The notes beneath the pieces are model-generated. The model saw only the letters and a list, made by a program, of their open reading frames with translations. It searched no databases and was not told where the DNA came from. The position numbers and the translations under genes were made by a program. From Rhodoferax ferrireducens (GTDB lineage Bacteria > Pseudomonadota > Gammaproteobacteria > Burkholderiales > Burkholderiaceae_C), in the NCBI RefSeq assembly GCF_003347515.1, contig NZ_QEII01000240.1, forward strand, positions 74,065-98,064: 24,000 nucleotides of DNA. Reading direction: 5' to 3'. Positions 8,451-24,000 of the stretch are shown here, in pieces (position 1 is the stretch's first letter; each line of letters opens with the position of its first letter).

Positions 8451-10138
8451 CAGACCACCGTCAAGGGTTGGCCAAAACCAAGATCTCGACGCAGGCGTGT
8501 GCAAATTTCTTCGTGTGTTAGCCCCGCTCGTGCGCCATCAACCACGGCACCGAACACATTGCCTGACGAATTATCGACCACACGCGAGATGTGGTCGAGC
8601 GCTTTGTCGACTTCAGCGACGGAGCGCCCCTTCTTCCAGGTCGCAAAATCGTCCAAATGCCCCTGCATTACGGCCGGATCAGGGCGTTCAATGAAGGGGC
8701 GCGCACTGGCGTCCTCCTCGGTCTGAAACGCGTTGACGCCTACAACAAGCTGTTCGCCCGACTCGATGCGCCGTTGGGCGCGAAGGGCTGACGCGCCGAT
8801 CATTCGTTGAATCAGTCCCGATTCGACGGCCTTGTACATTCCGCCGGCGTCATCGACCATCTTGATGATGGACCGGATCTTTTCTTCCATTTGGTCCGTC
8901 AAGGCTTCCACGTAAAACGATCCCCCGAGCGGATCAATCACATCCGTCAGGTGGGCTTCTTCGCGAAGGACGTTTTGTGTCGCGACCGCAATGCGCGCAC
9001 CGAACTCGCTGGGGCATGCCAACGCCTCATCGTAGGCATCCGTGTGCAATGACTGGAGTCCTCCGAAGATTCCAGCCATCGCCTGAACGGTGACACGGGC
9101 AATGTTATTGAGCGGCTGTTGCCGCGTCAGGTCAACCCCTGAAGTCTGTCCGTGGAATTTAAAGCGGGATGACCTCGGGTCCTTGGCACCGAGTCGCTCG
9201 CGAGTAATCTGGGACCAAATGCGTCGCCCAGCACGAAATTTGGCGATCTCCTCAAAAAGGCTCAGCGAGATATCGAAAAAGAAGGTGAAGCGCGGCAAGA
9301 AATCGTCAGGATCCATACCACGAGCGATGCAGTCTTCGGCATTCTGAATAGCAGTACACAGCGTAAAGGCCATCGCCTCGGCCGGCGTCGCGCCTGCCTG
9401 CTGCATATGTTGACCGACCACCGACATCGGATTCCAGCGGGGAACATATTGCTTGCAATACGCGATGTGATCGAGCAATACGCGACGCGATCCAGGCAGC
9501 GAAAGCCGGTAGAACATGTGGTTGGCGACAAAATGCGAGATGTAGTCACTCTGGTTTGAAGTGCCAGTGATTGATCGCCAGTCGGTGCCACGCCGTTCGG
9601 CCGCAATCAGCATGAAGGCCAAAAGAGTGAATGGCGACGGGTCGTTCAGTGCACACGAGACTTCTCCGACGTCGACCCCTTGAAGGCTGCGCTGCATGTG
9701 GTCGACGTTGTTGATCACGACCCCACACGTTCCGAGCAGTTCCTTATCGACCGAGCTCATGTCATAGCCGCGATACACGGAATTGCAGGGAATGAGGGAA
9801 ACAGCCGTCGCACCGCCCTCCATCAGGCCCAATAGACGCGCGTTGTAGTCTGCCGGTGTGCCGAGCCCGACCAGTTGCCGCTGCGTCCAGGTGCGACCTC
9901 GGTACATCGTCGCATAGATGCCACGCGTGTAGTCGGGCTGGCCAGGGTAGCTCAGCGGATCATCGCCGCCGTACCGCGCCCAGTCGCAGGGGGTGTAAAG
10001 CGGTTTGATCGGTATCCCCGACACGTTTTCGAGAGGACGCTCCGCCGGAATCGACTCACGGTATTCGGTTTCCCACGCGGTGTAAGAGGGGGTCGATTCA
10101 AGACCTGTGGTGATCGACGGTTCAATTGGCTTGTCCAT
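8450..10138 (-). CDS. Coenzyme B12-dependent acyl-CoA mutase, large (substrate-binding TIM-barrel) subunit; divergent member of the methylmalonyl-CoA mutase family
   Basis: ORF 8450..10186. I prefer the ATG at 10138 (MDKPIEP), which has AAGGAAA upstream and sits 1 nt after the small-subunit stop. Family motifs are [55 protein letters not shown] and [15 protein letters not shown]. Confidence 0.85.
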
Positions 10139-10139
10139 T

Positions 10140-10580
10140 TCAATTTCCTTTACCAAGCAAGGCGGCACCCTCAATTCGAGCCTCACGTGCGTAGTCGCGA
10201 ATGCGCGCCGTGATTTCGTCCATCGTGCTGCCAGGATGGAATACCTGCCGTACGCCGCTCTTAATTAACTGGACTTCCTCGTTGTCCGGCACGATGCCGC
10301 CAACGATGACGCGCACATTACCCAGGCCGGCCTCCCGTAGCGCCTTGATCAGCTTGGGAACGATCAGATGATCGGTTGCCAGAGAGGAGATGCCAATCAC
10401 ATCCACATCCTCCTCGAGCGTCGTTTTCACGACGGTCTCAATGCTCTGCCAGGGAGGGGTATAGATCACCTCCATTCCGGCGTCGCGGCAGGCAGCGGCA
10501 ACAATGCGGCTGCCGCGGTCGTGGCCATCCAGCCCAATCTTTGTCACCAGCACCTTCGGTTTAAAGTCCTGTGGAGTCAT
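10140..10580 (-). CDS. Acyl-CoA mutase small subunit, B12-binding domain
   Basis: 146 aa. The canonical cobalamin-binding DxHxxG is present (GLDGHDRGS), followed by GISSL and VIVGGIVP, as in IcmB/HcmB-type small subunits. Confidence 0.85.
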
Positions 10581-10590
10581 TCGCTATCCT

Positions 10591-11250
10591 TTACAGTTTG
10601 AGTAAATTCATTTTCAGCAGCTCGATGAATCGCTTGGCAATCTCGTCCGGCGTCAACGCGCCCCCTTCCCTGAACCAGGTTTGACTCCAGTTCAGTGCGC
10701 CCATGAGCAAGAGGCGCAGATCACGCCGCTCGACCGACTTCGGCAGCGGAAGCATTTCGAGCAGTGCTTCGAAGCGGTGTTCGTACGAGTTGCGAAGGAT
10801 GGCCAATTCGGCAGCGACGGCGGGGGCATCGTCGGGTCGGATGCGTATCACTACTTGCGAGTAGTCGGTACGATCCAACAGGGCTGATAGATGCCCGATG
10901 CAAGCAGCCTCGAGCCGATTCCACGGATCGTCAACGCCATCGATGGCGGCGTCGACCTTGGCAGAAATCCGCTCAACGCCCTCGCGATAAACAGCCACCA
11001 GCAGGGCTTCCTTGGTCTCAAAGTAGTAGTAGAGCGAGCCGGGCAGCATCCCAACGGGTTCGACAATCTCTCGAATCGACGCGGCGGCGAACCCCCGCTT
11101 GGCGAATACGCGCGCGGCTTCGTCAAGCAGTTTTGGCAAACGGTTGTGGGCACGCCGGGGGACCTTTGCGGCGTCTGAACTGGTCTCGGAAGAAATGTCG
11201 AGACGGGAGAGCTTTGTCACGGGCGTTTCCTTGGCTCGCTTGTCGAGCAT
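10591..11250 (-). CDS. TetR/AcrR family transcriptional regulator; first gene of the mutase-transporter operon
   Basis: 219 aa. The N-terminal HTH region LLDEAARVFAKRGFAAASIREIVEPVGMLPGSLYYYFETKEALL is typical of TetR. Only 10 nt separate its stop from the mutase small-subunit start. Confidence 0.85.
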   Translation of the reverse strand: MLDKRAKETPVTKLSRLDISSETSSDAAKVPRRAHNRLPKLLDEAARVFAKRGFAAASIREIVEPVGMLPGSLYYYFETKEALLVAVYREGVERISAKVDAAIDGVDDPWNRLEAACIGHLSALLDRTDYSQVVIRIRPDDAPAVAAELAILRNSYEHRFEALLEMLPLPKSVERRDLRLLLMGALNWSQTWFREGGALTPDEIAKRFIELLKMNLLKL

Positions 11251-11840: not shown

Positions 11841-11955
11841 CCCCGTCCGGCAAGTTCGTCACCAGCGAGGTGCTCAACGTCGAGGGCGGAATGCTGCTGT
11901 GGTGTGAGTTCTGGCCGGCCGGCAAGCCCGACTACTTCAAGGTCGATCAGCCATG
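11841..11955 (+). pseudogene. C-terminal stub of a short-chain dehydrogenase/reductase, fused in frame to the transposase remnant
   Basis: SGKFVTSEVLNVEGGMLLW matches the characteristic SDR C-terminus (..ITGQxLxVDGGM..). There is no upstream Rossmann part. The reading frame switches from transposase-like to SDR-like right after LADAG. Confidence 0.4.
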
Positions 11956-12400
11956 AACGCGCAGGACCCGGCCCCATCGGCAAGTTACCTCCACGGGCCG
12001 TTTCAGCAACTCGTGGGATACGACAGCTTGAACGACGAGCGCGGCCTGTATTTCCGGCTGCCAATCCGGCGCGACCACCTCAACCCCCACGGCGTGCTCC
12101 ACGGCGGCGTGCCCTTGACCCTGCTCGATGCGGTCGGGGGCAGAACGCTGATCAACCGGCCAATCCCAGGCAGCGGCCAGCTCATCCAGTCGTCGGTGAC
12201 AGTCACGCTCACCGTGGATTTCATGCGTGCGATTGGCGCCGGAATCCTGTTTGCATCGGGAACGCCTGACTGCAGCGTCGTGCGTTCATTGCGTGCCCTC
12301 ACAGATATGGGCACGACGTTTGCGCTCACCTTGCGCACGAGGATTCGATGGTCTTATGAGATGCATCGGACCAGTACACGCACTCGCGCGGACACCCGGT
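11953..12400 (+). pseudogene. PaaI/4HBT-like hotdog thioesterase, probably decayed (3' end undefined, no stop codon)
   Basis: The start overlaps the preceding stop (ATGA). The N-terminal two-thirds is hotdog-like: HLNPHGVLHGGVPLTLLDAVGG ... TVTLTVDFMRAIGAG. After about residue 100 similarity fades. The frame then stays open until 13260 only because it runs antisense through the ADH gene. Confidence 0.4.
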
Positions 12401-12420
12401 GCACGACTTCGCGCCTTCGG

Positions 12421-14589
12421 TCATTTCTTGGGGCGTATCGCGTCTGCCGTACCCTGGATGAAGGCCTTGATCTTCTCCACATCGTCCACGCTCAGCTTGC
12501 CCGTGAAGTCAGGCATGCCCCTGCTCATGGCCGGTCCTTTGAAGATGAACTTGTCGAGGTTTTCGATGAAGGCCGCGTTCATGTAGCCGAGGTTGGGAAT
12601 GCTGCCGCTGCGGTCCACGCCGGGAACACCATGGCAGAGAACGCAGTTGCTCACATACAGCGCAGTACCCGCCGGCACCTGGGCCGGATCGTATTTCACG
12701 CCAGCCACCAGTTCGCCCATCCAGTAAGCAACAAACTCCGGCATAGGCGCTTTGCCACCCACGGCAAAGGTATAGACCGTGCCCAGGCCTTGTCGTTCGG
12801 AGGCGCGCTGGGAAACCCCGTAAGAGCCGCCCCATCCCACGGCAATCGACACGTACTGCTTGCCATCCACCAGGTAGGTGACCGGTGCCGCAATCACACC
12901 GGTGCCCGTCAGGGATTCCCACAACTTCTCGCCGTTCTGGGCGTTATAGGCAATAAATCGTCCGTCTGCCGTGCCCTGAAAAACCAGGTTGCCGGCCGTG
13001 GTCAGCGTACCGCCGTTCCAGGGCGACACCTGTTCCTGGCGCCACGCTTCTTTTTGTCGAACCGGATCCCAGGCAATCAGGCGTCCAAACGGCTTGCTTT
13101 TCGGCGGCGTTACATTGATCAAATTGCCAGTATTCCAACCCGTACCGGAGCCTGGTTGACCTGGCTTGTTGGAATTGAAGCTCCAGTTCTTGTCGTCCAT
13201 CAGGTTGACAGGTATATTTTGCGCCGGCAAGTAGACCAACCCGGTCTGTGGGTTGAATGACATGGAATGCCAGTTGTGCGCGCCGTAGGGGCCTGGAATG
13301 GCGTCAAACGGCCGATCCGTGGGGCGCGCCTCTGCGGTCTCGATGGGGCGCCCAGTCGCGTCATAGCCGGTGGCCCAGTTCACATCAACAAAGTTTTTTG
13401 CCGAGATGAACTTGCCGTTGGTGCGGTCGATCACGAAGAAGAAACCGTTCTTCGGCGCATGCAGGATCACCTTACGCGGCTTGTTATCAATCTTGAGATC
13501 GGCCAGGATCATCGGCTGGGTCGACGTGTAGTCCCAGTTGTCGCCGGGGGTTTCCTGGTAATGCCAGACGTACTTGCCGGTGTCCGGATTGAGTGCAACG
13601 ATGGAGGCCAGGTAAAGGTTGTCGCCACCTGCGGGGCTGCGCTTGGCGCGACTCCAGGGTGAGCCGTTGCCGGTCCCGACGTACATCAGATTCAAAGCTG
13701 GGTCAAAGGCCATCGAGTCCCAGGCGGTGCCACCGCCGCCCGCCGCCCAGTACTTGCCGCTGGGGTCCCAGGTTTTGGCCGCCGCGGCCATGGAGGCGTC
13801 TTCAAATGGCTTGCTTGGATCCCCTGGTACCGTGAACCATCGCCATTTTTGTTTGCCGCTGGCGGCATCGTAGGCCGTGATGTAACCCCGCACGCCGTAT
13901 TCGGCGCCACCATTGCCAATGATGACCTTGTCTTTGAAAATCCGTGGTGCGCCCGTGCTGGTGTAGGAACGGCTGTGATCAATGACGGTGTCCTGTTCCC
14001 ACGCCACTTTGCCGGATGCGGCATCGAGGGCGATCAACCGACCATCAAAGGCGGCAACGTAGATGCGACCCTTGTGCAAGGCTACGCCACGGTTAACCAC
14101 ATCACAGCAGCCTTTGTAACCGAACTCACGTTTGATTTCTGGGTCATAGGTCCAGATTCTTTTCCCGGTCCGCACATCCACGGCATGAACAATGCTCCAG
14201 GACGCGGTCACATACATGATGCCGTCCACCACCAGCGGCGTGGCCTCAACGCCTCGTGTGGATTCGAGGTTGTACGACCAGACCAGTCCCAGGTCCTTCA
14301 CATTGGAAGCATTGACCTGATTAAGCTTGCTGAACCGTGTCTCGGCATAGTCCAGCCCAGTGCTTGGCCAATCGGCGGTCCTGGCCTCGTTGGCGCGCAT
14401 GAACGCGCCATCGACCTTCTTGGTCACGGCCGCAATGTGCGCCGTCGAGCCCTTGGCCCCTTCGGCCATGGCGGCCGGCACTGCCGTGGCAAGCAGCGAA
14501 GCCACCGCCAACGTCAGGGCCAATGCAGGGCGCTTTACTAATTTCCCTTGCCGCGCCTGACGCGCCGGCTTGATCCAACTGTTCATCAT
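12421..14589 (-). CDS. Quinohemoprotein PQQ-dependent alcohol dehydrogenase (type II ADH: eight-bladed PQQ propeller plus C-terminal cytochrome c domain)
   Basis: 722 aa with a signal peptide ending PAAMA-EG. The vicinal disulfide GYKGCCDVVNRG is typical of PQQ-ADHs, and ETPGDNWDYTSTQ is the active-site region. The C-terminal heme c motif is CVLCHG, with a GMPDF Met-ligand region. The start is ATG 14589 or, with better SD spacing, 14586. It lies 21 nt downstream of the preceding gene. Confidence 0.9.
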   Translation of the reverse strand: MMNSWIKPARQARQGKLVKRPALALTLAVASLLATAVPAAMAEGAKGSTAHIAAVTKKVDGAFMRANEARTADWPSTGLDYAETRFSKLNQVNASNVKDLGLVWSYNLESTRGVEATPLVVDGIMYVTASWSIVHAVDVRTGKRIWTYDPEIKREFGYKGCCDVVNRGVALHKGRIYVAAFDGRLIALDAASGKVAWEQDTVIDHSRSYTSTGAPRIFKDKVIIGNGGAEYGVRGYITAYDAASGKQKWRWFTVPGDPSKPFEDASMAAAAKTWDPSGKYWAAGGGGTAWDSMAFDPALNLMYVGTGNGSPWSRAKRSPAGGDNLYLASIVALNPDTGKYVWHYQETPGDNWDYTSTQPMILADLKIDNKPRKVILHAPKNGFFFVIDRTNGKFISAKNFVDVNWATGYDATGRPIETAEARPTDRPFDAIPGPYGAHNWHSMSFNPQTGLVYLPAQNIPVNLMDDKNWSFNSNKPGQPGSGTGWNTGNLINVTPPKSKPFGRLIAWDPVRQKEAWRQEQVSPWNGGTLTTAGNLVFQGTADGRFIAYNAQNGEKLWESLTGTGVIAAPVTYLVDGKQYVSIAVGWGGSYGVSQRASERQGLGTVYTFAVGGKAPMPEFVAYWMGELVAGVKYDPAQVPAGTALYVSNCVLCHGVPGVDRSGSIPNLGYMNAAFIENLDKFIFKGPAMSRGMPDFTGKLSVDDVEKIKAFIQGTADAIRPKK

Positions 14590-14610
14590 GTCTCCTTTTT
14601 TTCGTGCTAT

Positions 14611-15222
14611 TTACTTTTGAGGTAAGTCGGTGATCGGGGTTTTGCGCCGCTGTCCGGTGAGCCGGTACAAGAGCCAGGCCAAGCCGATAAAGATCAAGGG
14701 CAATGGCAGGTATTTCCAGTAGTTGCGGACGCCGACGCGAAACGGAAAAACCGAGGTCTCCATCTTCCCGCTGACCGGGTCCGCAGCACTGATCAGGCCG
14801 ATGTACCAGCCAGGTTCAGTGAACCGGTGATCCAGGGTGACCGTGCCGCGCGAATAGACCTTGGCCGGCAACGCCACCAACGTCCGCTGCCCAATCCGGC
14901 TCGTATCGCCAAGATCCTCGTAGCGCGCCTTGGCACCCAGTCCATCCGCGTCACGCAGGATGCGGAACTCCACCACGCGTTCGCGCAGCGCGGGCTGGAT
15001 GAAGTCAATCACGATCACAGCCCGCCCTACCTCGGGTATGTCCTCGCAAAACTCCTGGCTGGCACGGTGCTCGGGCTGGTACCCGGCAAAATGAGCTTGG
15101 TTGCTGCCGATGCGCAGGATGCATTTGTCGTCTTCCATGCCGACCCCGCCATGCGCCCATGCCGATGCCGCAACCAACGCAAGCAGCGAGGAACTCAACA
15201 TTCGGATCAGTCGCATCTCCAT
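14611..15222 (-). CDS. Hypothetical exported protein with a C-terminal membrane anchor, co-transcribed with the CuMMO (PmoD/AmoD-like architecture; homology not established)
   Basis: 203 aa. The signal peptide MLSSSLLALVAASAWA precedes HGGVGMEDDKC. A soluble domain of about 140 aa carries two Cys, followed by one hydrophobic helix (LPLPLIFIGLAWLLYRL) and a basic tail. The start ATG overlaps the xmoB stop (TAATG at 15220-15224). Confidence 0.6.
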   Translation of the reverse strand: MEMRLIRMLSSSLLALVAASAWAHGGVGMEDDKCILRIGSNQAHFAGYQPEHRASQEFCEDIPEVGRAVIVIDFIQPALRERVVEFRILRDADGLGAKARYEDLGDTSRIGQRTLVALPAKVYSRGTVTLDHRFTEPGWYIGLISAADPVSGKMETSVFPFRVGVRNYWKYLPLPLIFIGLAWLLYRLTGQRRKTPITDLPQK

Positions 15223-16463
15223 TACCCCCCGAACAGCGGAATCATCGGCCCGCTGATTTCAACCGGGTAGCGGTTACCCTGGGCGTCAAACAAAAACAGC
15301 ATGCCAGCCACCACCGCATCCGGGGAAGCGATCATCGTCGTCATGCGCTGCGTCTCCCACATCGCGTCGTCCGCATAGATCACGATCTTTTGCGTTGCAC
15401 CCGGCTTGATCGGACCACCCTCAACACGCAACGCGTCCTGCGCTACCAGATCATCCTGATCTTTGGGCGTGACCTTCAGAACCGCCGAGTTGATGAAACG
15501 AAGGCCGCCCGAGGCAAACTCACCGATGTTCAAGGGACCCTTCCCGCTGTTGCTCACTGTGAGCTCGATACGGAAGCTGCGCCCCGGGATGCGGTAGCGG
15601 GCATCGTCCATAGTGACCGACACCGGCGAAGGCGCCATCTTCAGAGTCGGGGTCTTGACCTTGCCGGTTTGAAGCGGTGTCGTGACGGGCCAGCGCTCAG
15701 AGGCATAAATGAAACCGCCCGCAACAAGCATCAGCGTGGCTACCATGATGACCAGTGCCGCCTGACGGTCACGCGTTGTGATCATCTCGTCGGCGTTCTC
15801 GCCCAGCGCGGTGGCACGCCGGTACCTCGGCAGAACCAAAGGCAACTTGGTCAACCAATAGCCAAACCAGACCAAAGCAAGCACCAACCATGCAGCAGAC
15901 CAGACAGCCGCATTAGCGAAGCCATGCGTTTCCAAATTCAGGGTTTGGTTAAACAATGTGGTGATGCTGTTTTCAAATGTCGCCTGGTCGCCAACAACCT
16001 CGACCCAAATACCCGGTCCAATCATCGGCCCGGCATCCTTCACATTGATGATCGGATGCAGGTGATAGCGCCCGGGTGTGCGGGCCTTCAACGTGACCTC
16101 GAAGTTGTACTGCTCACCGCGCTCATACGAACTACTGCGTATGGTGGGCACACCGTTGATGCGGCTGTCCAGGCGCACAAAAGACGGCCCGGGCACACCT
16201 ATATTGAGATAGGCAGTGTTCTCAATGGAGGCCACATGGGCCGGCCAGGAGTTCGAAGGAATAAAACTTCCCTTGACGACCAGCATTTGGTTGACAGCGA
16301 GCTTGCGCGTCGATAAATCGACGTCAAACCAATGTACGGTGCGCATGCGCAAAGCAGGCTGCTGGGCCTTTTCACCATGAGCCAACGCAGGCGCTGCTGA
16401 AAGCGTAACCAGAACGACGACCAGCCCTTGAATGACTGCGAACAATTTTGCAATGAAATTCAT
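15222..16463 (-). CDS. xmoB: Copper membrane monooxygenase subunit B (PmoB/AmoB family)
   Basis: ORF 15222..16520. I prefer the ATG at 16463 (MNFIAKLF..), which has AAGGAAGAGG upstream. The signal peptide ends ALA-HGEKAQQPALRMRTVHWFD; compare M. capsulatus PmoB HGEKSQAAFMRMRTIHWYD. Other matches are RYHLHPIINV (HxH of the CuB site), two central TM helices, and the C-terminal cupredoxin region ending FLFDAQGNRYPVEISGPMIP. Confidence 0.9.
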   Translation of the reverse strand: MNFIAKLFAVIQGLVVVLVTLSAAPALAHGEKAQQPALRMRTVHWFDVDLSTRKLAVNQMLVVKGSFIPSNSWPAHVASIENTAYLNIGVPGPSFVRLDSRINGVPTIRSSSYERGEQYNFEVTLKARTPGRYHLHPIINVKDAGPMIGPGIWVEVVGDQATFENSITTLFNQTLNLETHGFANAAVWSAAWLVLALVWFGYWLTKLPLVLPRYRRATALGENADEMITTRDRQAALVIMVATLMLVAGGFIYASERWPVTTPLQTGKVKTPTLKMAPSPVSVTMDDARYRIPGRSFRIELTVSNSGKGPLNIGEFASGGLRFINSAVLKVTPKDQDDLVAQDALRVEGGPIKPGATQKIVIYADDAMWETQRMTTMIASPDAVVAGMLFLFDAQGNRYPVEISGPMIPLFGG

Positions 16464-16473
16464 GACCTCTTCC

Positions 16474-17226
16474 TTAAACAACTTTGCGCAGCCACACAGC
16501 CTTGACACCGAGCGAGCCAATCCAGGCCCAAAACCAGAGACTCAATATGGTCAGGAAGCCCGCAAAAACCGCCGTCAACGGCGTCACTGCGTCGCCGAAG
16601 GTCCTCAATGTGCTCTGCTCGATGATGCGCACATATTCAGGCATGGCGGTGCGGATGTACTCAAAGCCCATCACGTCCGCCACTGTCATCAGCGTGCCAT
16701 GCATTTCGACCGGCACCATGAACGGGGCCAGCAATGGCCAGTTCATGGGGTACAGAAGCAGCCCCGAAAGAAAGCCCGCAAAAATCCCCGTGAAAAACCA
16801 GCTGCGCGTCAGCAGCAAAGTGCAATCAATCAAGAGGCCCACACCAAGGTAGGTCGACGGCAGCACCATATTCATCGGAAAACCCGCGAACTCGTGAAAG
16901 TTAAGGTAACGACTCAACCAGCCCGTCAGCGTCAGCCCGAGAATGCTCAGCGTGGCACCCAGAGGTAGGCGCAGCAGCTTCCAAAACGCGTAGCCGAATA
17001 CGCCGGGCAGAATAACCAGCACCAGTGGCGTGACCAGCGGCCAATAACGGCGATCTCGCCAATCAATCCAGTAATCCCAGTCCCCTACCAAGAGGGCAAA
17101 CTGGAAGGCAAATACCGCTCCCAGCAGGATCACAAAGAGAGGGATGACCACCCAGTCAACCTGGGCATCAACGCGGGCCGCTTCCTGCGGGCTAAAGGCA
17201 GCCTCAGCCGGTGTCAAAACAGACAT
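16474..17226 (-). CDS. xmoA: Copper membrane monooxygenase subunit A (PmoA/AmoA family)
   Basis: 250 aa. Matches to PmoA/AmoA as I remember them: GDWDYWIDWRDRRYWPLVTP, NFHEFAGFPMNMVLPS, MNWPLLAPFMVPVE and YIRTAMPEYVRIIEQSTLRTFG. The RBS is GGAGAC. Confidence 0.9.
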   Translation of the reverse strand: MSVLTPAEAAFSPQEAARVDAQVDWVVIPLFVILLGAVFAFQFALLVGDWDYWIDWRDRRYWPLVTPLVLVILPGVFGYAFWKLLRLPLGATLSILGLTLTGWLSRYLNFHEFAGFPMNMVLPSTYLGVGLLIDCTLLLTRSWFFTGIFAGFLSGLLLYPMNWPLLAPFMVPVEMHGTLMTVADVMGFEYIRTAMPEYVRIIEQSTLRTFGDAVTPLTAVFAGFLTILSLWFWAWIGSLGVKAVWLRKVV

Positions 17227-17291
17227 TCAAAGTCTCCAAAAAAAAGGACGGGTGTGCAATTTGCCTTTGCAAGCCGCCAACACACCACGCT

Positions 17292-17317
17292 AAAAGAAAG
17301 ACCCTCAAAGGAGGGCC
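17292..17317 (-). terminator. Intrinsic-terminator-like hairpin between xmoC and xmoA (GGCCCUC cuuu GAGGGUC followed by UUUCUUUU)
   Basis: Read on the minus strand: a 7-bp GC-rich stem (one G.U pair), a 4-nt loop, then a tail with 7 of 8 U. It lies about 50 nt after the xmoC stop. Confidence 0.35.
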
Positions 17318-17320
17318 CGC

Positions 17321-17346
17321 CCCATCGGGACTAAAGTCCCAATGGG
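17321..17346 (-). other. 11-bp RNA stem-loop directly after xmoC (CCCAUUGGGAC uuua GUCCCGAUGGG)
   Basis: Read on the minus strand: ten Watson-Crick pairs plus one G.U, with a UUUA loop. Confidence 0.4.
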
Positions 17347-17366
17347 CTTGCACGTCAAGAGCAGGA

Positions 17367-18146
17367 TCAGTGAGCCGTTTGAATGGCGGCTTGTGGCGAC
17401 ACCAGCTGCTTTGTCAAATCGGCTACTCTGCTCAATATCTGAACAAGCAAGCCACCAGCCACAAACGTAGACCAACCCAGCAGCACAAAGCCGTAGTGAA
17501 TCGGCGCGGAAAACAATTCCTCGGCATAGAAGAAAGTGTGACCCCACTCATTGAAACCGACGTTGGGCATGATCATGAATGCGCCCGCAATGATGATGGC
17601 GAACGGAAGCGAGATGCGATTGCCAAAGAAAGGGATTCGTGTATGAGCGTAGGCGAAAGTAATGAAACCCCAAAACACCAGCAAAGGCACACAGAAGTAA
17701 AATAAACCAATGTGAGTGGGTGTGAAATCCGTATCCCGGATTGTCACCTGATGCCAGGCTGCATCAGCCTCTGTGTAGATCGAACCTGTTACATAAAACA
17801 TGATGGCGAACAACAAAATCATGCCCATCAGCAAGAATAGACGCCGAACTTCTTCGCGCGGCCCAATCGTGGAAAAATCCCGCACACGGGTGTTCCACAA
17901 ATACACCAGCGTCCCGGTTCCCAACGCAAGAATCAGAATCAACTGCCCATACAGCAGGCGCATCCAGTAAACATCGAACTCATGGCTGAAATAATCGAGT
18001 CCATAGGTGAACGCCGACGCCTCAGAGTAAATTCGATAGCTGGTAAATAGCAGCGCAAGCCCAAGTAGCGCCAGAAAGAACTTACCCCACGGAACCCCGA
18101 TGGCCGCCCGCGCAGCACCAGTGATGTTGATAGAACTCGTTTTCAT
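17367..18146 (-). CDS. xmoC: Copper membrane monooxygenase subunit C (PmoC/AmoC family)
   Basis: 259 aa. Matches to PmoC/AmoC: TEADAAWHQVTIRDTDFTPTH and PNVGFNEWGHTFFYAEELFSAPIHYGF. The D-x3-H-x12-H pattern is D128/H132/H145 and the N-x3-H-x13-H pattern is N199/H203/H217. The RBS is GGAGAC. Confidence 0.9.
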   Translation of the reverse strand: MKTSSINITGAARAAIGVPWGKFFLALLGLALLFTSYRIYSEASAFTYGLDYFSHEFDVYWMRLLYGQLILILALGTGTLVYLWNTRVRDFSTIGPREEVRRLFLLMGMILLFAIMFYVTGSIYTEADAAWHQVTIRDTDFTPTHIGLFYFCVPLLVFWGFITFAYAHTRIPFFGNRISLPFAIIIAGAFMIMPNVGFNEWGHTFFYAEELFSAPIHYGFVLLGWSTFVAGGLLVQILSRVADLTKQLVSPQAAIQTAH

Positions 18147-18370
18147 CGTCTTGTCTCCTGTTATTTAAAGTAAACATCCGGCCATTGAGAGCCTGCCTGT
18201 CGAATGGCAAGACCGGACTTCGTGCCAATGTGCCGGGAATGGTAAAACGAAGCATGTCCAACGTCACCTAACTTTCGTTAGGGTGTTTTCCATGACGCAT
18301 CGCAATAAACTTGCGTCCACCTCGGATTGCTATCGCAAAAGGAGGGAAAACAATATTAAAAGATACAAAA

Positions 18371-19828
18371 ATGAAGTCTGCCTCCCCTGTAATACAAATG
18401 CACCTTGTAAGTCCGGACGAGCCCGTCAAGCAGTCTGAAGTAAAGCGCATCTTCGCCGCCCAACGCGAAACGGCCTTGCGGCTTCGTCAATCGACCGCCG
18501 CGCAACGCCTCGACAAGATTGACCGCCTGAAGCGGGCCGTCCTGGCCCGCCAGGCCGACATCCAGCGCGCCGGCGCACTGGACTTCGGCAAACCAGCCGC
18601 CGAGGTCGATCTGACAGAAATTTTGCCCATCGTGGCCGAGGCCAACGACGCGCGTCGCCATCTGCGCCGCTGGATGAAGCAGCAGAAGGTTGTCCCGACC
18701 CTGCTGATGTTCGGCACGTCGAGCTATGTGCAGTGCGAACCGAAGGGCCGTTGCCTGATCATCTCGCCCTGGAACTACCCGGTCAACCTGACCTTCGGCC
18801 CGCTGATCTCGGCTATCGCCGCCGGTAACACAGCGATTCTCAAACCCTCTGAGATGACACCGCACCTGTCGGAGGTGATGGCCGAGATCGTGCGCGAGGT
18901 GTTTACCGAAGACGAGGTAGCCCTGTTCCAGGGCGAAGCGGCGGTCTCGCAGGCCCTGCTGGATCTGCCGTTCGATCACATCTTCTTTACCGGCTCGCCG
19001 GCGATTGGCCGCGTGGTGATGGCCGCGGCGGCCAAGCACCTGACCAGCGTGACACTGGAACTGGGCGGCAAAAGCCCGACCATCGTCGACGCCACGGCGG
19101 ACCTGAAAGCAGCGGCGGCCAACCTCATGTGGTCCAAATGCACCAACAGCGGCCAGACCTGCATTGCGCCGGATCACGTCTACGTCCACGAATCGGTCAA
19201 GGAATCCTTTGTCCAGCACTGCCGGGAGGCTCTGGCCAAAGCCTACGGTGAAGGCGATGCCGTGCGCACCAGCCCTCACCTGGCGCACATCGTCAATGAA
19301 CGCCATGCCAAACGCATCGTCGGACTGCTTGATGACGCGCTTCAAAAAGGTGCCAGGCTGCTGGCCGGCGGCCAGCACCAGACGGATCGCCAGTTCGTGG
19401 CACCCACCTTGATCGACCAGCTCAGCCCGGACGCGAAGATCATGCAGGAAGAAATCTTCGGCCCCTTGCTGCCCGTGATCGCCTACCGCGATCTCGACGA
19501 AGTCATCACCAAGATCAACGACCAGCCCAAGCCGCTCGCACTGTACATCTGGACCAGGGATGGCAAAGTCGCCGACAAGGTGCTGCGGGAAACGAGTTCG
19601 GGTGGTGCCTGCGTCAACCACAGCGTCGTGCAGTTCCTGCATGGCCGCTTGCCATTCGGCGGCATCAACAATTCCGGGCTCGGCAGCGCACACGGGATCT
19701 ACGGGTTCAAGGCCTTCAGCCATGAGCGCGCGGTCGTCAAGACTTGGCTGCTGCTGGCGTCGACCTTCTACCCGCCCTACACCCCTCTGTCGCGACGGCT
19801 GATCAACTGGACGCTGCGTCTGGTCTGA
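18371..19828 (+). CDS. alkH: NAD(P)+-dependent aldehyde dehydrogenase, ALDH3/AlkH-like (medium-chain or fatty aldehyde type)
   Basis: ORF 18311..19828 (TTG). I prefer ATG 18371 (MKSASPV), but the start is uncertain because the only strong SD (GGAGGG, 18341-18346) is 24 nt upstream. Motifs are PWNYPVNLTFGPLISAIAAGN, ELGGKSP, the catalytic GQTCIAPDHVYV, EEIFGPLLPV and PFGGINNSGLGSAHG. It is co-linear with P. putida GPo1 AlkH as I remember it. Confidence 0.8.
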   Translation: MKSASPVIQMHLVSPDEPVKQSEVKRIFAAQRETALRLRQSTAAQRLDKIDRLKRAVLARQADIQRAGALDFGKPAAEVDLTEILPIVAEANDARRHLRRWMKQQKVVPTLLMFGTSSYVQCEPKGRCLIISPWNYPVNLTFGPLISAIAAGNTAILKPSEMTPHLSEVMAEIVREVFTEDEVALFQGEAAVSQALLDLPFDHIFFTGSPAIGRVVMAAAAKHLTSVTLELGGKSPTIVDATADLKAAAANLMWSKCTNSGQTCIAPDHVYVHESVKESFVQHCREALAKAYGEGDAVRTSPHLAHIVNERHAKRIVGLLDDALQKGARLLAGGQHQTDRQFVAPTLIDQLSPDAKIMQEEIFGPLLPVIAYRDLDEVITKINDQPKPLALYIWTRDGKVADKVLRETSSGGACVNHSVVQFLHGRLPFGGINNSGLGSAHGIYGFKAFSHERAVVKTWLLLASTFYPPYTPLSRRLINWTLRLV

Positions 19829-19840
19829 CGGTCTCGGTTG

Positions 19841-19873
19841 CACCGGTCTAGCCCGGTGAACTTCTTTTTTCTC
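19841..19873 (+). terminator. Weak terminator or attenuator candidate after the aldehyde dehydrogenase gene (CACCGG tctagc CCGGTG followed by AACTTCTTTTTTCTC)
   Basis: A 6-bp perfect stem with a 6-nt loop and a T-rich tract, 13 nt after the stop codon. Confidence 0.3.
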
Positions 19874-19894
19874 TGAATCGCATAGGGACAAATC

Positions 19895-21535
19895 TTGAAA
19901 TTCGATTACGTTATCGTGGGCGCCGGTTCGGCCGGCTGTGTCTTGGCCAACCGCTTGAGCGCCGATCCGTCGAGGCGCGTGTGCCTGCTCGAAGCGGGAC
20001 GGTCCGACGACACCCCGCTGATCCGCACCCCCATGGGCATGGTGGGCTTGCTCACGACCCGCAAGTACAACTGGTATTTCGACACCGAACCACAAGCCCA
20101 ACTCGACGGCCGCCGCCTGTACTGGCCACGCGGCAAGACACTCGGGGGCAGCAGCTCGATCAATGCCATGGTCTACATGCGCGGACACCAAGCCGACTAC
20201 GACGCATGGGCCGCAGCTGGAAACGCCGGATGGGCCTACAAGGACCTTCTGCCGATGTTCTTGGAGCATGAGAATAACGAGCGCGGCGCCTCGACCTACC
20301 ACAGGACAAATGGACTACTGAACGTCGCCGATGTGCGCTCGCCCAACCCCTTGTCGGGCCGCTTCATCGACGCCGCCGTGCAATGCGGTATTCCGCGCAA
20401 TATGGATTTCAACGGCGCGCAACAGGAAGGTGCCGGGCCTCACCAGGTGACCCAGAAGAACGGCGAGCGCTGGAGCAGCGCGCGGGCCTTCCTGCACCCG
20501 GTCATGGACCGGTCGAATCTGACCGTGCTCACCGGCGCCCATGTCACGCGCATCCTGTTCTCTGGCAAACAGGCCGTGGGGGTCGAGATCGAACACAAAG
20601 GCGAACGCCAGCGCATTGAGGCCGAGCATGAAATCATTCTGAGTGGCGGCGCCATCCATTCGCCGCAGTTGCTGCAGCTCTCGGGCGTGGGGCCGAAGCA
20701 GGCGCTGGCCCGGCACGGCATCACCCAAGTCGCTGATTTGCAGGGCGTAGGCCAAAACCTGCAGGACCATCTCGACGTGACGGTGATGATCCGCGACCGC
20801 AGCAAGCAGGCGATTGGTGTTGCACCTGGTTTTCTTCCGAGAGCGGTCGCCGGGCTCTGGCAATACTGGCGCAAGCGCGAGGGCTTTCTGTCCAGCAACG
20901 TGGCTGAGGCCGGGGGCTTTGCCAAGTTGTCGCCGCAATCGGCGCTGCCGGAAGTGCAGTTCCATTTCCTGCCGACCTACCTGCGTAACCATGGCCGCGA
21001 TCTGGCGCCCGGCTATGGCGCCACCTTGCACATGTGCCAGTTGCGACCGAAAAGCCGTGGCTTCATCGACCTGAAAAGCGCCGACCCGCTGGCCGCACCG
21101 GTGATTCAGCCCAACTACCTGAGCCATGCCGACGACTGGGACGAGATGCTGCGCGGCCTGAAACTTGCGCGGCGCCTCTTTGAGGCCGATGCCTTTCACG
21201 ACATCCATGGCGGTGAAGTGGCGCCGGGTGCCGGCGTGCGCAGCGACCAGGATTTGCGGGCCTACATCCGGCGCAGCGCGGAAACCATTTATCACCCGGT
21301 CGGTAGCTGCAAAATGGGGAACGATGACATGGCTGTGGTCGACGCGCAGTTGCGGGTGCACGGACTCTCAAACCTGCGTGTCGCCGATGCATCCATCATG
21401 CCGACCCTCATCGGCGGCAACACCAATGCCCCTTGCATGGTGATCGGCGAGAAGTGCGCTCGCGCCATCCTGCGCAGCCACAAGCCGCAGCCAGCCCATG
21501 CGCAAGCCAACCGCACCCAACTCTTGGCGGCCTGA
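19895..21535 (+). CDS. alkJ: FAD-dependent GMC-family oxidoreductase, AlkJ/choline-dehydrogenase-like alcohol dehydrogenase
   Basis: 546 aa with a TTG start and AGGGA 6 nt upstream. The N-terminus FDYVIVGAGSAGCVLANRLS is the ADP-binding fold. GGSSSINAMVYMRG is the GMC signature, and the C-terminus carries HPVGSCKMG and the LRVADASIMP active-site region. Confidence 0.85.
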   Translation: MKFDYVIVGAGSAGCVLANRLSADPSRRVCLLEAGRSDDTPLIRTPMGMVGLLTTRKYNWYFDTEPQAQLDGRRLYWPRGKTLGGSSSINAMVYMRGHQADYDAWAAAGNAGWAYKDLLPMFLEHENNERGASTYHRTNGLLNVADVRSPNPLSGRFIDAAVQCGIPRNMDFNGAQQEGAGPHQVTQKNGERWSSARAFLHPVMDRSNLTVLTGAHVTRILFSGKQAVGVEIEHKGERQRIEAEHEIILSGGAIHSPQLLQLSGVGPKQALARHGITQVADLQGVGQNLQDHLDVTVMIRDRSKQAIGVAPGFLPRAVAGLWQYWRKREGFLSSNVAEAGGFAKLSPQSALPEVQFHFLPTYLRNHGRDLAPGYGATLHMCQLRPKSRGFIDLKSADPLAAPVIQPNYLSHADDWDEMLRGLKLARRLFEADAFHDIHGGEVAPGAGVRSDQDLRAYIRRSAETIYHPVGSCKMGNDDMAVVDAQLRVHGLSNLRVADASIMPTLIGGNTNAPCMVIGEKCARAILRSHKPQPAHAQANRTQLLAA

Positions 21536-21628
21536 GTTCCCACCAAGAGGCATCACGCGCTGCATCTCAACACGATACCCGGCCAGTGGCCGAATTTAGC
21601 CTTAACCCAAAAAACCCAAGGAGACATC

Positions 21629-23269
21629 ATGAACGGTCAAATGATGAGCGCCCCTCTGCTCATTTCCTCACTCATCACCCATGCGGCGCGCCATCACGGC
21701 GATGTGCCCATCGTCTCGCGCCGTGTCGAAGGCGATATCCACCGCACCACCTATGCGCAATTGCATGACCGGTCGCGCCAGATGGCCCATGCGCTCGGCG
21801 GTCTCGGCGTGCAAGCGTCGCAGCGCGTCGCCACGCTGGCCTGGAACGGCTACCGGCATCTGGAGCTGTACTTCGCCGTGTCCGGCAGCGGTTCGGTGCT
21901 GCACACCCTCAACCCGCGCCTGCACCCGGACCAGTTGCGCTACATCCTCGACCATGCCGAGGACCAGGTGCTGTTCTTTGACCTGACCTTCCTGCCCCTG
22001 GTCGAGGCCGTGGCGGGGCGCTGCAAGACGGTGCGCCACTTCGTCGCGATGATCGACAAGGACAAGATGCCGGCGAGCAAGCTGCCCAATTTGCTGTGCT
22101 ACGAAGACCTTGTCTCGGCGCACGAACCCGACTTCGTGTGGCCTACCTTCGACGAAAACACCGCCTCGTCGTTGTGCTACACCTCGGGCACCACCGGCAA
22201 CCCCAAGGGCGTGCTCTACAGCCACCGCTCGACGATGCTGCACACCTATGCTTCGGTCATGCCGGACGCGATTGGCATCTCATCGCGCGACGGCGTGATG
22301 CCGGTGGTGCCCATGTTCCACGTTAATGCCTGGGGCCTGCCCTACAGCTGCACGATGGTCGGCGCCAAGCTGGTGCTGCCGGGTCCGGCGCTGGACGGCA
22401 AGTCGCTGCACGAACTGATTGCTGCCGAGCAGGTGACGTTTGCGGCCGGCGTACCCACCATCTGGCTCGGCCTGCTCCAGTATGTCTCGCAGAACTCGCT
22501 CAGCCTGGCCCCTTTGAAGCGCACCATTATCGGCGGCTCGGCCGTGCCGCCGAGCATGATGCGAGCCTTCGAAGACGAGTTCGGCGTCGAAGTCATCCAT
22601 GCCTGGGGCATGACGGAGATGTCCCCGCTGGGCACGGTGTGCCGACTGCGCCAAAAGCATCTGGCCGATCCGCTGGACTCGCAGCATGCGCGGCTCGCAA
22701 AGCAAGGCAAGGCGGTGTTCGGCATAGACATGCGCATCGTCGATCCGCAAGGGGACGATGTCCCCTGGGACGGCAAGTCGCAAGGCGATCTGATGGTGCG
22801 CGGACCGTGGGTGGTTCAGAGCTACTTCGGCTCTGATGGCGCTGACCCGCTGGTAAGCGATGAGACGGGCGCGCAGTGGTTCCCCACCGGCGATGTGGCC
22901 ACGATCGACGCCGATGGCTACATGCAGATCACCGATCGGAGCAAGGACGTCATCAAGTCTGGCGGCGAATGGATCGGCTCGATCGACCTGGAGAACGTTG
23001 CCATGGCACACCCGGCGGTGGCGATGGCAGCGGCCATCGCCGTGATTCACCCGAAATGGGATGAACGGCCCTTGCTGGTGGTGGTGCGCAAGCCAGGTAC
23101 GGAGGTCACCCGCGAAGCGCTGATCGAGCACTACAAGGGCAAGGTCGCCTCCTGGTGGGTGCCGGACGACGTGGTGTTCGTCGATGCCATCCCCATCGGC
23201 GCCACCGGCAAGATGCTGAAGAACCAGTTGCGCGAGCAGTTCAAAGACCACCGGCTGCCGGGGGTCTAA
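21629..23269 (+). CDS. alkK: Medium/long-chain acyl-CoA ligase, AlkK-like AMP-binding enzyme
   Basis: 546 aa with RBS AAGGAGA. The N-terminus is [24 protein letters not shown]. Motifs are [21 protein letters not shown] and [30 protein letters not shown]. It has the same length class and N-terminal pattern as AlkK as I remember it. Confidence 0.85.
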
Positions 23270-23343: not shown

Positions 23344-24000
23344 ATGATGAAACAATTGGAAATTCGGCGAATGGCCAGCCTGGCTGTATTGTGCGGCATC
23401 GCGGGCGCTGTATCCGCCCAGGAATCGCCGTGGTTTGTGCGCGTTGGTGCCGCATCCGTTCAATACCAATCCGATGCGGACATTACAGTCGGGGGAGGCC
23501 CGGTGCCAGGGGCCGCGTTGAGCCTGAGTGACAGCACGACCCTCGCGGCCGAGATCGGATACTGGCTCACGCCCTCGGTAGCCCTGCGGGCAACGGTGGG
23601 GATACCGCCGAGTACGCGCATCGAAGGTCGGGGTACGGTGGCTGGCTTAGGTCAGTTAGGCGAGATCAAGTATGCGCCAGCGATGTTTACCGGCACGTAC
23701 AGCTTCGACCTCGGAACCATCAAGCCTTACATTGGTGGCGGGATCGCCTACATGCATATCCTGGAGTCAAATGACGGCGCAGTCGCGGGCCTGGACGTGG
23801 AGAGCCGGTTTGGTGGCGTGCTGCAAGCCGGCGTGGATATTCCCATCGACAAGTCGTGGGGATTGTTCGTCGACTTCCGCAAGCTGTACTGGAAAACCAA
23901 GGCAACCGGAACAGTCCCCGCATTCGGCGGAGCGCCCGTCCAGGCCGACTTGAACCCCTCTCCGTTCGTGGTGATGGCCGGGGTATCGAAGCGTTTTTGA
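23344..24000 (+). CDS. alkL: OmpW/AlkL-family outer-membrane beta-barrel (uptake channel for hydrophobic substrates)
   Basis: 218 aa, with the stop TGA at 23998-24000, exactly at the window end. The signal peptide is LAVLCGIAGAVSAQE. VGGGPVPGAALSLSDSTTL compares with AlkL VGGGALPNADVSIGNDTTL. It has an alternating beta-strand pattern and a C-terminal aromatic residue (..VSKRF). The second ATG (23347) has better SD spacing. Confidence 0.85.
   Translation: MMKQLEIRRMASLAVLCGIAGAVSAQESPWFVRVGAASVQYQSDADITVGGGPVPGAALSLSDSTTLAAEIGYWLTPSVALRATVGIPPSTRIEGRGTVAGLGQLGEIKYAPAMFTGTYSFDLGTIKPYIGGGIAYMHILESNDGAVAGLDVESRFGGVLQAGVDIPIDKSWGLFVDFRKLYWKTKATGTVPAFGGAPVQADLNPSPFVVMAGVSKRF

Follow-up and report, generated by a model that had tools for sequence, protein, structure and literature searches.

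A xmoCABD-adh operon in a Rhodoferax contig, back to back with alkHJKL-like genes, as a probable member of the betaproteobacterial alkane-type copper membrane monooxygenases

Copper membrane monooxygenases (CuMMOs) make up a superfamily to which particulate methane monooxygenase (pMMO), ammonia monooxygenase (AMO), and hydrocarbon monooxygenase (HMO) belong. A study of 2020 described CuMMOs from alkane-utilising Betaproteobacteria (Rochman et al., ISME J 14:714). A paper of 2021 describes the CuMMOs of Polaromonas, Rhodoferax, and Solimonas as widespread but functionally unproven. In Actinobacteria, hmoCAB is used for C2-C4 alkanes according to the literature. The hmoCAB loci of Mycolicibacterium chubuense NBB4 and Rhodococcus sp. 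ZPP likewise place a CuMMO in a non-methanotroph and are linked to an acyl-CoA ligase. Here, we describe a CuMMO locus in 24,000 nucleotides of Rhodoferax ferrireducens DNA (contig NZ_QEII01000240.1, positions 74,065 to 98,064 of the forward strand). This whole stretch is called the window. Positions 12421-18146 of the window carry, on the minus strand, the five co-oriented and close-packed genes xmoC, xmoA, xmoB, xmoD, and adh, the last for a pyrroloquinoline quinone (PQQ) alcohol dehydrogenase (ADH). We consider it quite likely that these genes are the xmoCABD-adh operon of the betaproteobacterial alkane-type CuMMO branch, that they stand back to back with an alkHJKL-like operon, and that they encode an alkane hydroxylase. 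The window thus appears to hold a further member of the already described alkane-type CuMMOs, not a new kind of system.

The Polaromonas and Rhodoferax xmoCABD loci have the same C-A-B-D order, the same PQQ-ADH gene downstream, and the same operon of aldehyde dehydrogenase (ALDH), GMC flavoprotein, and ligase genes upstream. Polaromonas sp. AER18D-145 and AET17H-212 are putatively the single-cell genomes of Rochman et al. Compared with the Polaromonas single-cell loci, the window lacks a block of orf, DUF2147, copC, and copD/cytochrome c genes and has an extra OmpW/AlkL-like gene. The pMMO of Methylococcus capsulatus Bath (1YEW, 3RGB, 7S4H) resembles the window's enzyme in its three-subunit order, in all its ligands, and in its PmoD-type gene. 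It differs in the clade of PmoA (42% identity), in the Bath-specific bis-His ligand His72, which is Ile in the window's XmoB, in its partner, which is a methanol dehydrogenase there and a quinohemoprotein ADH here, and in the Cx7MxH motif of PmoD (CuA), where XmoD has Cx9H. The actinobacterial hmoCAB lies on a distant branch (35-37% identity in XmoA) and has different accessory genes. No PmoD is annotated in NBB4 or ZPP, whereas the window's operon has XmoD. In the alkBFGHJKL genes of OCT-type plasmids, the hydroxylase is the di-iron AlkB with rubredoxins. The window has a copper enzyme instead, whose genes lie on the opposite strand, and the periplasmic PQQ-ADH is an addition. The CYP153A locus of Polaromonas sp. 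JS666 shares the thioesterase, the PQQ-ADH, the xmoC control region, the ALDH, the GMC protein, and the ligase with the window.

An initial annotation, made from the letters of the window, had read xmoCAB on the minus strand in the order C-A-B. Pfam assignments (AmoC, AMO, and Monooxygenase_B) bear out these contiguous genes and their order. The count of three genes in the interval was too low, as xmoD and adh bring it to five. The genes are tightly spaced (Table 1). The gap between xmoA and xmoB is 10 nt, and the xmoB stop and xmoD start codons share one base (TAATG). The 21-nt gap between xmoD and adh carries adh's own Shine-Dalgarno sequence, AAGGAGA, and a terminator scan found no terminator-like site there. 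The start of xmoB is most likely ATG 16463 and not TTG 16520, because a 10-kb metagenome contig of identical sequence was independently called with a 413-aa gene and because the Shine-Dalgarno sequence AAGGAAGAGG serves as the predicted ribosome-binding site of this ATG. The 140-nt spacer between xmoC and xmoA is predicted to be strongly structured, with a minimum free energy of -56.4 kcal/mol (z=-3.27), and none of 200 shuffled sequences folded as well. The corresponding spacer of a Polaromonas single-cell genome (locus L002, 9790-10000) is also structured (z=-4.58), but the two sequences cannot be aligned. Such a spacer may set the C:A:B stoichiometry or mark a site of mRNA processing.

When the subunits were aligned to solved pMMO chains, their ligand sets proved intact, as in a predicted member of the pMMO/AMO/HMO superfamily. 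All nine ligands of the CuB, CuC, and CuD sites are kept, and the residues that had been mapped by hand in the initial annotation proved to be correct. The XmoB signal peptide is predicted to be cleaved at ALA|HGEK, which exposes a mature N-terminal His that aligns with His33 of M. capsulatus PmoB (3RGB_A). The HLH of XmoB aligns with His137 and His139 (HVH) of the same chain, completing CuB. In XmoC, D128, H132, and H145 align column for column with the CuC residues Asp156, His160, and His173 of PDB 1YEW_C. N199, H203, and H217 align in the same manner with the CuD residues Asn227, His231, and His245.

The phylogenetic position of XmoA was examined by a genome scan and a tree. The scan used one genome per bacterial species, and the best 80 of 537 confirmed matches were considered. 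XmoA is 97% identical to its counterparts in Polaromonas sp. AER18D-145 and AET17H-212 and in one Polaromonas metagenome-assembled genome (MAG). Together with the publication of betaproteobacterial alkane CuMMOs in 2020, this identity leaves the novelty implied by the initial annotation unsupported. A protein search also turned up, in many samples, an XmoA of 97% identity that NCBI labels as that of a Hydrogenophaga MAG. The next-best species-level matches were an Acidovorax MAG (89%) and a Bordetella-labelled MAG (77%). These are followed by Nevskiales such as Sinimarinibacterium, Panacagrimonas, and Stagnimonas (64-73%) and by various Gammaproteobacteria and Alphaproteobacteria of marine origin, Cycloclasticus among them, with identities as low as 44%. 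The earlier suggestion of a betaproteobacterium-like host is supported in the form of a Comamonadaceae-type organism. No methanotroph or nitrifier genus occurs among these best 80 of 537 matches. The identity of XmoA is 42% to PmoA of M. capsulatus, 41% to PmoA of M. alcaliphilum (20Z), 42% to PxmA of Methylomagnum, 37% to XmoA of Rhodococcus ZPP, 35% to HmoA of M. chubuense NBB4, and 33% to PmoA of Methylacidiphilum.

In a neighbour-joining tree with 100 bootstraps and with PmoA, PxmA, and HmoA sequences as references, XmoA groups with five betaproteobacterial sequences (Polaromonas, Acidovorax MAG, and Bordetella MAG) at 100% bootstrap. This group lies inside a Nevskiales group (69%). PmoA, PxmA, the PmoA of Methylacidiphilum, and HmoA are all placed elsewhere. 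Nesting within methanotroph or nitrifier clades had been named beforehand as an outcome that would speak against a hydrocarbon role. XmoA is not nested in PmoA in the tree, and its separation from AmoA is judged by bit score. Against XmoA, the score is 199-203 bits for three solved AmoA chains, 215 for PmoA, and about 540 for Polaromonas-type sequences.

Profile scores point the same way for two of the three subunits. XmoA is below the NCBIfam equivalog cut-offs of TIGR03080 (PmoA/AmoA, 258.6 vs 318 bits) and AmoA_BACT (263.5 vs 290), and XmoC is below those of AmoC_BACT (265.1 vs 319) and TIGR03078 (PmoC/AmoC, 231.3 vs 280.6). XmoB is above its cut-offs, marginally for PmoB/AmoB (398.3 vs 394.9) and clearly for AmoB_BACT (522.9 vs 336). 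The XmoB score for AmoB_BACT, an amoD/E-type gene in the operon, and the presence of classical ammonia oxidisers among the Betaproteobacteria are what could be said for an AMO that converts ammonia to hydroxylamine. We give this reading next to no credence. XmoA and XmoC fall short of the AMO profiles, the solved AmoA chains score far lower than Polaromonas XmoA, and nitrifiers are missing from the best matches in the scan described above. In addition, the 24 kb of the window contain no hao, cycA, cycB, or copCD, and XmoD lacks the Cx7MxH motif of AmoE.

The fourth gene of the operon encodes XmoD, a PmoD/AmoD homologue without a match in Pfam or NCBIfam. Its predicted architecture consists of a signal peptide, a periplasmic domain, and a C-terminal membrane helix. 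CuA formation by PmoD requires Cys41, Met49, and His51, and the motif of this class is Cx7MxHxnC, which includes Cys65 (Fisher et al., PMC6189053). The Cx9HxnC class of PmoD proteins binds copper without CuA formation, and CuMMO-bearing Mycobacterium and Nocardioides have no PmoD (Fisher et al., PMC6189053). In the window's XmoD, the motif reads C34-x9-H44...C60. Both Cys and the His are kept, and Gln stands at the Met49 position. Among 72 xmo-linked XmoD homologues (loci L002-L081), this position is occupied by Arg in 34, Lys in 23, Thr in six, Gln in two, and other residues in the rest. None of the 72 combines Met at this position with the His. The same 72 sequences, from non-methanotroph Proteobacteria, share the conserved block DDxC-x9-HF[TA]GY.P-x6-EFCEDI. 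Because Gln replaces Met49 and the Met and His combination is missing from the homologues, the window's XmoD falls by its motif in the Cx9HxnC class, and the in-operon XmoD of non-methanotroph Proteobacteria lies outside the CuA-forming subclass.

The fifth gene, adh, is predicted to encode a type II quinohemoprotein ADH, with a PQQ beta-propeller and a C-terminal cytochrome c, and not MxaF or XoxF. Among solved enzymes, its product matches 1KB0 from Comamonas testosteroni with 1231.8 bits over residues 47-721, followed by 1KV9 (708.8) and 1YIQ (662.3). Methanol dehydrogenases and XoxF score 260-335 bits. The initial annotation had stated that MxaFI/XoxF, hao, and cycAB are missing nearby. This holds within the 24 kb, with the qualification that a PQQ enzyme of the 'methanol/ethanol family' is present and is, by its scores, a quinohemoprotein ADH.

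These scores also bear on the idea that the enzyme is a pMMO and its host an unrecognised betaproteobacterial methanotroph. pMMO has exactly the same CuB, CuC, and CuD ligands, XmoB just passes the PmoB/AmoB cut-off, and the operon joins a PmoD to a PQQ 'methanol/ethanol family' dehydrogenase. However, XmoA shares no more than 41-42% identity with PmoA and belongs to a different, well-supported clade, and the 80 best-matching genomes include no methanotroph. The PQQ enzyme far exceeds in its quinohemoprotein score what it reaches with MxaF/XoxF, and the neighbouring genes are alkHJKL-like. Carriers of these genes reportedly did not assimilate 13C-methane. The methanotroph explanation is therefore hard to credit.

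The ALDH, GMC, ligase, and OmpW genes on the plus strand form an operon that begins on the other side of the control region of xmoC. Several of the best plasmid matches to the GMC protein outside Polaromonas were examined, and two of them lie in alk operons. In the plasmid pCP7-41 of Pseudomonas sp. 7-41 and in a plasmid of Marinobacter salarius, the order is alkB, rubredoxins, ALDH, GMC, ligase, and OmpW. The plus-strand operon follows the same order as the pCP7-41 alkB operon, with identities of 50% for the ALDH, 56% for the GMC protein, 54% for the ligase, and 29% for OmpW. The GMC protein is 56% and 55% identical to those of the pCP7-41 and M. salarius alkB operons, respectively. The OmpW gene shares 29-32% identity with its counterparts at loci L086 and L087, which hold the same position as the last gene of an alk operon. 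Because the order and the sequences match those inside alkB operons, the plus-strand operon can be read as alkHJKL-like, with the copper enzyme taking the role of AlkB. The linkage also recurs in relatives. An ALDH and/or GMC homologue (58-92% identity) lies less than 10 kb from xmo at 11 of 19 loci of the betaproteobacterial and Nevskiales clade, and a PQQ-ADH homologue is near xmo at seven of the 19. After the ligase, the window alone has the OmpW/AlkL-like gene. The JS666 and Polaromonas loci have a LuxR-type regulator instead, with 90% identity between the JS666 copy and that of the Polaromonas single-cell genome. The window stops within the OmpW/AlkL-like gene, before a regulator could come into view.

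A comparison with plasmid 2 of Polaromonas sp. JS666 (NC_007950.1) provides a further line of evidence. Two blocks of the plasmid correspond to the window. The first matches positions 12386-14700 with 93% DNA identity and takes in adh together with the final 90 nt of xmoD. The second matches 18148-23264 with 94% DNA identity and extends from the base that precedes the start codon of xmoC across the ALDH, GMC, and ligase genes. The ALDH of JS666 is 94% identical to that of the window. Between the blocks, JS666 has 86 bp, compared with 3.45 kb in the window. The 86 bp match IS5-family transposase genes and are joined one base upstream of the xmoC start-codon position. The xmoD remnant of JS666 is a frameshifted stub of about 30 codons, which reads PLVLIGLAWL.../...LAWLLHRLTGQWRR... 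as against PLIFIGLAWLLYRLTGQRRK. Stub and IS5 match together form a scar at 13075-13252 of the JS666 locus L082 (window 14614-14700 and 18148). Since an xmoD stub and an IS5 fragment stand in the place of xmoCAB, JS666 has lost xmoCAB and most of xmoD by an IS5-associated deletion.

JS666 carries a different hydroxylase on the same backbone. Ferredoxin, ferredoxin reductase, and P450 genes lie between its PaaI thioesterase and ADH genes, 3 kb from the scar. Along its full length the P450 matches PDB 7ANT (965 bits), and it is very similar to the alkane hydroxylase CYP153A7 (E=2e-182). The CYP153A of JS666 is reported to hydroxylate butane (as the G254A variant) and octane (PMC8479775; Scheps et al. 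2011). One backbone thus carries either a CuMMO or CYP153A in close relatives. In the window, homology to JS666 and L002 breaks off at the deletion junction 12270/12271, some 130 nt short of where their thioesterase genes end, and begins again a little downstream of adh. The thioesterase frame runs on past this junction, antisense to adh, as a spurious ORF of 435 aa (11953-13260, plus strand). A P450 at the variable site of the Polaromonas single-cell genome was ruled out, as copC and a copD/cytochrome c fusion occupy that site. After the ADH, L002 (14820-18474) has a 201-aa ORF, DUF2147, copC, and a 697-aa fusion of CopD, cytochrome c, and an AhpC/TSA-like (thioredoxin-like) domain. This copper-handling set resembles those beside amo and pmo operons, and the window is without the 3.8-kb block.

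The flanks of the window are nearer to JS666 (synonymous divergence, dS, 0.12-0.22) than to the Polaromonas single-cell genome (dS 0.29-0.69). Because they are closer to the JS666 plasmid by this measure, a Polaromonas-type and possibly plasmid-borne island is suggested. The initial annotation had placed the locus in a hydrocarbon and not a methanotroph or nitrifier context. The phylogeny of XmoA, the sub-cut-off scores of XmoA and XmoC, the alkHJKL-like neighbours, and the CYP153A backbone of JS666 all agree with that placement.

A rival view is that the operon in the window rides on a mobile catabolic island as a passenger that is silent or in decay. The mosaic character of the island, the IS5-linked loss in JS666, and the junction of the window, which truncates the thioesterase gene and removes the copCD block present in the Polaromonas single-cell genome, would fit a passenger. 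Yet the four xmo frames are intact with good ribosome-binding sites, and every metal ligand is kept. The ratio of nonsynonymous to synonymous divergence (dN/dS) against the Polaromonas orthologues is 0.04 for xmoA, 0.12 for xmoC, 0.15 for xmoB, 0.19 for xmoD, and 0.13 for adh, over a dS of 0.3-0.7. Because of these values (0.04-0.19 in the xmo genes), the xmo genes are held by selection and are not decaying, and a passenger is highly improbable. Identity to L002 is uneven across the subunits, at 97% in XmoA, 88% in XmoD, 87% in XmoB, and 82% in XmoC, and dS per gene varies from 0.31 to 0.72. This unevenness hints at recombination inside the operon.

The substrate of an alkane hydroxylase at this locus would be short to medium-chain n-alkanes. 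Carriers of the Polaromonas and Rhodoferax xmo genes were reportedly enriched and labelled on ethane and propane, and their xmoA is said to be propane-induced. Because this reported labelling has to be set against accessory genes of the medium-chain type and the CYP153A of JS666, we make no finer commitment. The C2-C4 range proposed in the initial annotation is not demonstrable from the sequence. The accessory genes belong to the medium-chain alk type, and the CYP153A that the JS666 backbone carries instead is reported to take both butane (as the G254A variant) and octane. The alkenes that it also named have no counterpart in the gene content, as nothing in the window handles epoxides.

Other substrates deserve consideration in this context. 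They include ethylene or propylene (by epoxidation), acetone (as with PMO3 of Methylacidiphilum), and a chlorinated ethene, which would parallel the JS666 lineage. CuMMOs are promiscuous, acetone is oxidised by one homologue (PMC8630023), JS666, whose plasmid has the nearest backbone, degrades cis-dichloroethene, and the function of the clade is unproven in the literature. In the window, however, there are no genes for a coenzyme M transferase, an epoxide hydrolase, a glutathione transferase, or acetol or ketone metabolism. The downstream set is homologous to alkHJKL and would process a primary alcohol through aldehyde and acid to acyl-CoA. Moreover, the JS666 backbone that lost xmoCAB carries a terminal alkane hydroxylase, CYP153A. 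We regard a substrate of this kind as improbable.

With n-alkanes as substrates, the pathway can be sketched as follows. A hydrocarbon, whose entry would be aided by the OmpW/AlkL-like porin, would be hydroxylated with O2 at its terminal carbon by XmoCAB in the inner membrane, at its copper sites CuB (in XmoB) and CuC and CuD (in XmoC). The product would be a primary alcohol; both the substrate and this regiochemistry are presumed. XmoD, as a membrane-anchored periplasmic copper protein, may support XmoCAB as PmoD does pMMO. The alcohol would be oxidised to the aldehyde by the co-transcribed periplasmic quinohemoprotein ADH and/or the AlkJ-like flavoprotein, the aldehyde to the acid by the AlkH-like dehydrogenase, and the acid would be activated by the AlkK-like ligase to an acyl-CoA for beta-oxidation. 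The electron route to the CuMMO is presumed as well.

A bolder version of this scheme has the CuMMO replace AlkB or CYP153 on a mobile island of the Polaromonas type and oxidise liquid medium-chain alkanes (C5 and above) as well as gases, with electrons from the alcohol returned to it directly by the co-transcribed quinohemoprotein ADH. We hold it to be rather doubtful. If true, the operon would itself encode a form of the 'direct coupling' that has been put forward for pMMO and methanol dehydrogenase. This would also widen the range of substrates that CuMMOs use physiologically and make their electron donor accessible to genetics.

Several points weigh against an alkane hydroxylase. The case for it is built from sequence, and the view is that of the 24-kb window, so that modules for C1 or nitrogen metabolism may lie elsewhere in the genome. 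Within the window, neither a regulator of nor an electron donor for the CuMMO is identifiable. It is only bit scores and the ranking of genome matches that speak against an affiliation with AmoA. JS666 keeps the ADH-alkHJK backbone without a CuMMO, and the linkage therefore shows compatibility and not dependence. Finally, the CuMMOs of Polaromonas and Rhodoferax are listed as of 'unknown function', and CuMMOs are described as promiscuous (PMC8630023).

Table 1. Coordinates of the predicted features in the 24,000-nt window.
Feature	Position	Strand	Support
Branched-chain amino-acid-type ABC transporter, AMP-forming ligase, MeaB-PaaI fusion, acyl-CoA mutase large and small subunits, TetR	within 1-11250		
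MeaB-type G-protein chaperone fused to C-terminal PaaI/4HBT thioesterase	7107-8504		Pfam MeaB residues 42-280, 4HBT 347-414
B12 acyl-CoA mutase, large and small subunits	8450-10580		
PaaI-type thioesterase, 3'-truncated at deletion junction 12270/12271	11953-12270	+	Pfam 4HBT
adh, type II quinohemoprotein alcohol dehydrogenase	12421-14589	-	Pfam PQQ and Cytochrome_CBB3; PDB 1KB0
xmoD, PmoD/AmoD homologue, 203 aa	14611-15222	-	PDB 6CPD (Methylocystis PmoD) E=3.7e-19
xmoB, CuMMO subunit B, 413 aa from ATG	15222-16463	-	Pfam Monooxygenase_B E=1.5e-121
xmoA, CuMMO subunit A, 250 aa	16474-17226	-	Pfam AMO E=1.6e-76
xmoC-xmoA spacer, three hairpins, one terminator-like (17318-17299)	17227-17366	-	Folding z=-3.27
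xmoC, CuMMO subunit C, 259 aa	17367-18146	-	Pfam AmoC E=1.2e-70
Divergent control region, xmoC and alkH-like gene	18147-18370		85% conserved in JS666 plasmid
alkH-like aldehyde dehydrogenase, 485 aa from ATG 18371	18371-19828	+	Pfam Aldedh E=1.7e-102; start per independent gene call
alkJ-like GMC flavoprotein alcohol dehydrogenase	19895-21535	+	Pfam GMC_oxred_N and GMC_oxred_C
alkK-like acyl-CoA ligase	21629-23269	+	Pfam AMP-binding; NCBIfam PRK07008 985.7 bits
alkL-like OmpW-family outer-membrane protein, runs into window end	23344-24000	+	Pfam OmpW E=9.3e-22

A sigma-70 scan of the divergent region (18147-18370) gave nothing convincing, and a sigma-54 promoter upstream of xmoC was rejected by eye, as the spacing of TGGCAC...TTGC is unsuitable. 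An Rfam scan of the window returned no matches.

The other side of the window holds a B12 mutase module, on which the branched-alkane idea of the initial annotation rests. The best solved match to the mutase large subunit is the 2-hydroxyisobutyryl-CoA mutase HcmA (E=3e-101), an enzyme that would mark a tert-butanol/isobutane pathway. Its motifs differ from those of methylmalonyl-CoA mutase (MCM), isobutyryl-CoA mutase (ICM), and 2-hydroxyisobutyryl-CoA mutase (HCM), with RQLVGLG for RQ[YFI]AGF, SLIPCNS for S.(A/D)FD.P, and QSDYISH for Q(N/A)DILKE. At the positions that we take to set specificity, the window has Leu, Asn, and Ile, where HcmA presumably has Ile90, Asp117, and Gln208 and MCM has Tyr89 and Arg207. 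A plasmid of Diaphorobacter sp. HDW4B encodes an orthologue with 66% identity and the same motif changes. It carries the same module of TetR, mutase, MeaB, ligase, and ABC transporter genes with no CuMMO nearby. Apart from the window, one Polaromonas single-cell genome is the only place where the module adjoins xmo. It is absent beside xmo at loci L003 and L004 and on the examined part of the JS666 plasmid. As listed, the MeaB-PaaI ORF and that of the mutase large subunit share about 55 nt. The assignment as a 2-hydroxyisobutyryl-CoA mutase was rejected because the pocket residues differ and the module recurs without a CuMMO. We treat it as a separable, presumptive acid-uptake module and not as evidence for branched-alkane oxidation.

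The known range of CuMMO-carrying organisms is unchanged by this locus. Possibly new are the finer details, namely the CuMMO and CYP153A alternatives with the IS5 scar of JS666, the homology to alkHJKL, and the consistent non-CuA motif of XmoD. A shared backbone that carries either a CuMMO or CYP153A, together with AlkB standing before a homologous module, is about the strongest sequence-only argument that could be made for an alkane-hydroxylase role. The JS666 plasmid, which is without xmoCAB, offers a natural 'knock-out' comparator, and the locus adds one more intact and strongly constrained member to the probable alkane-type CuMMOs of the Proteobacteria.

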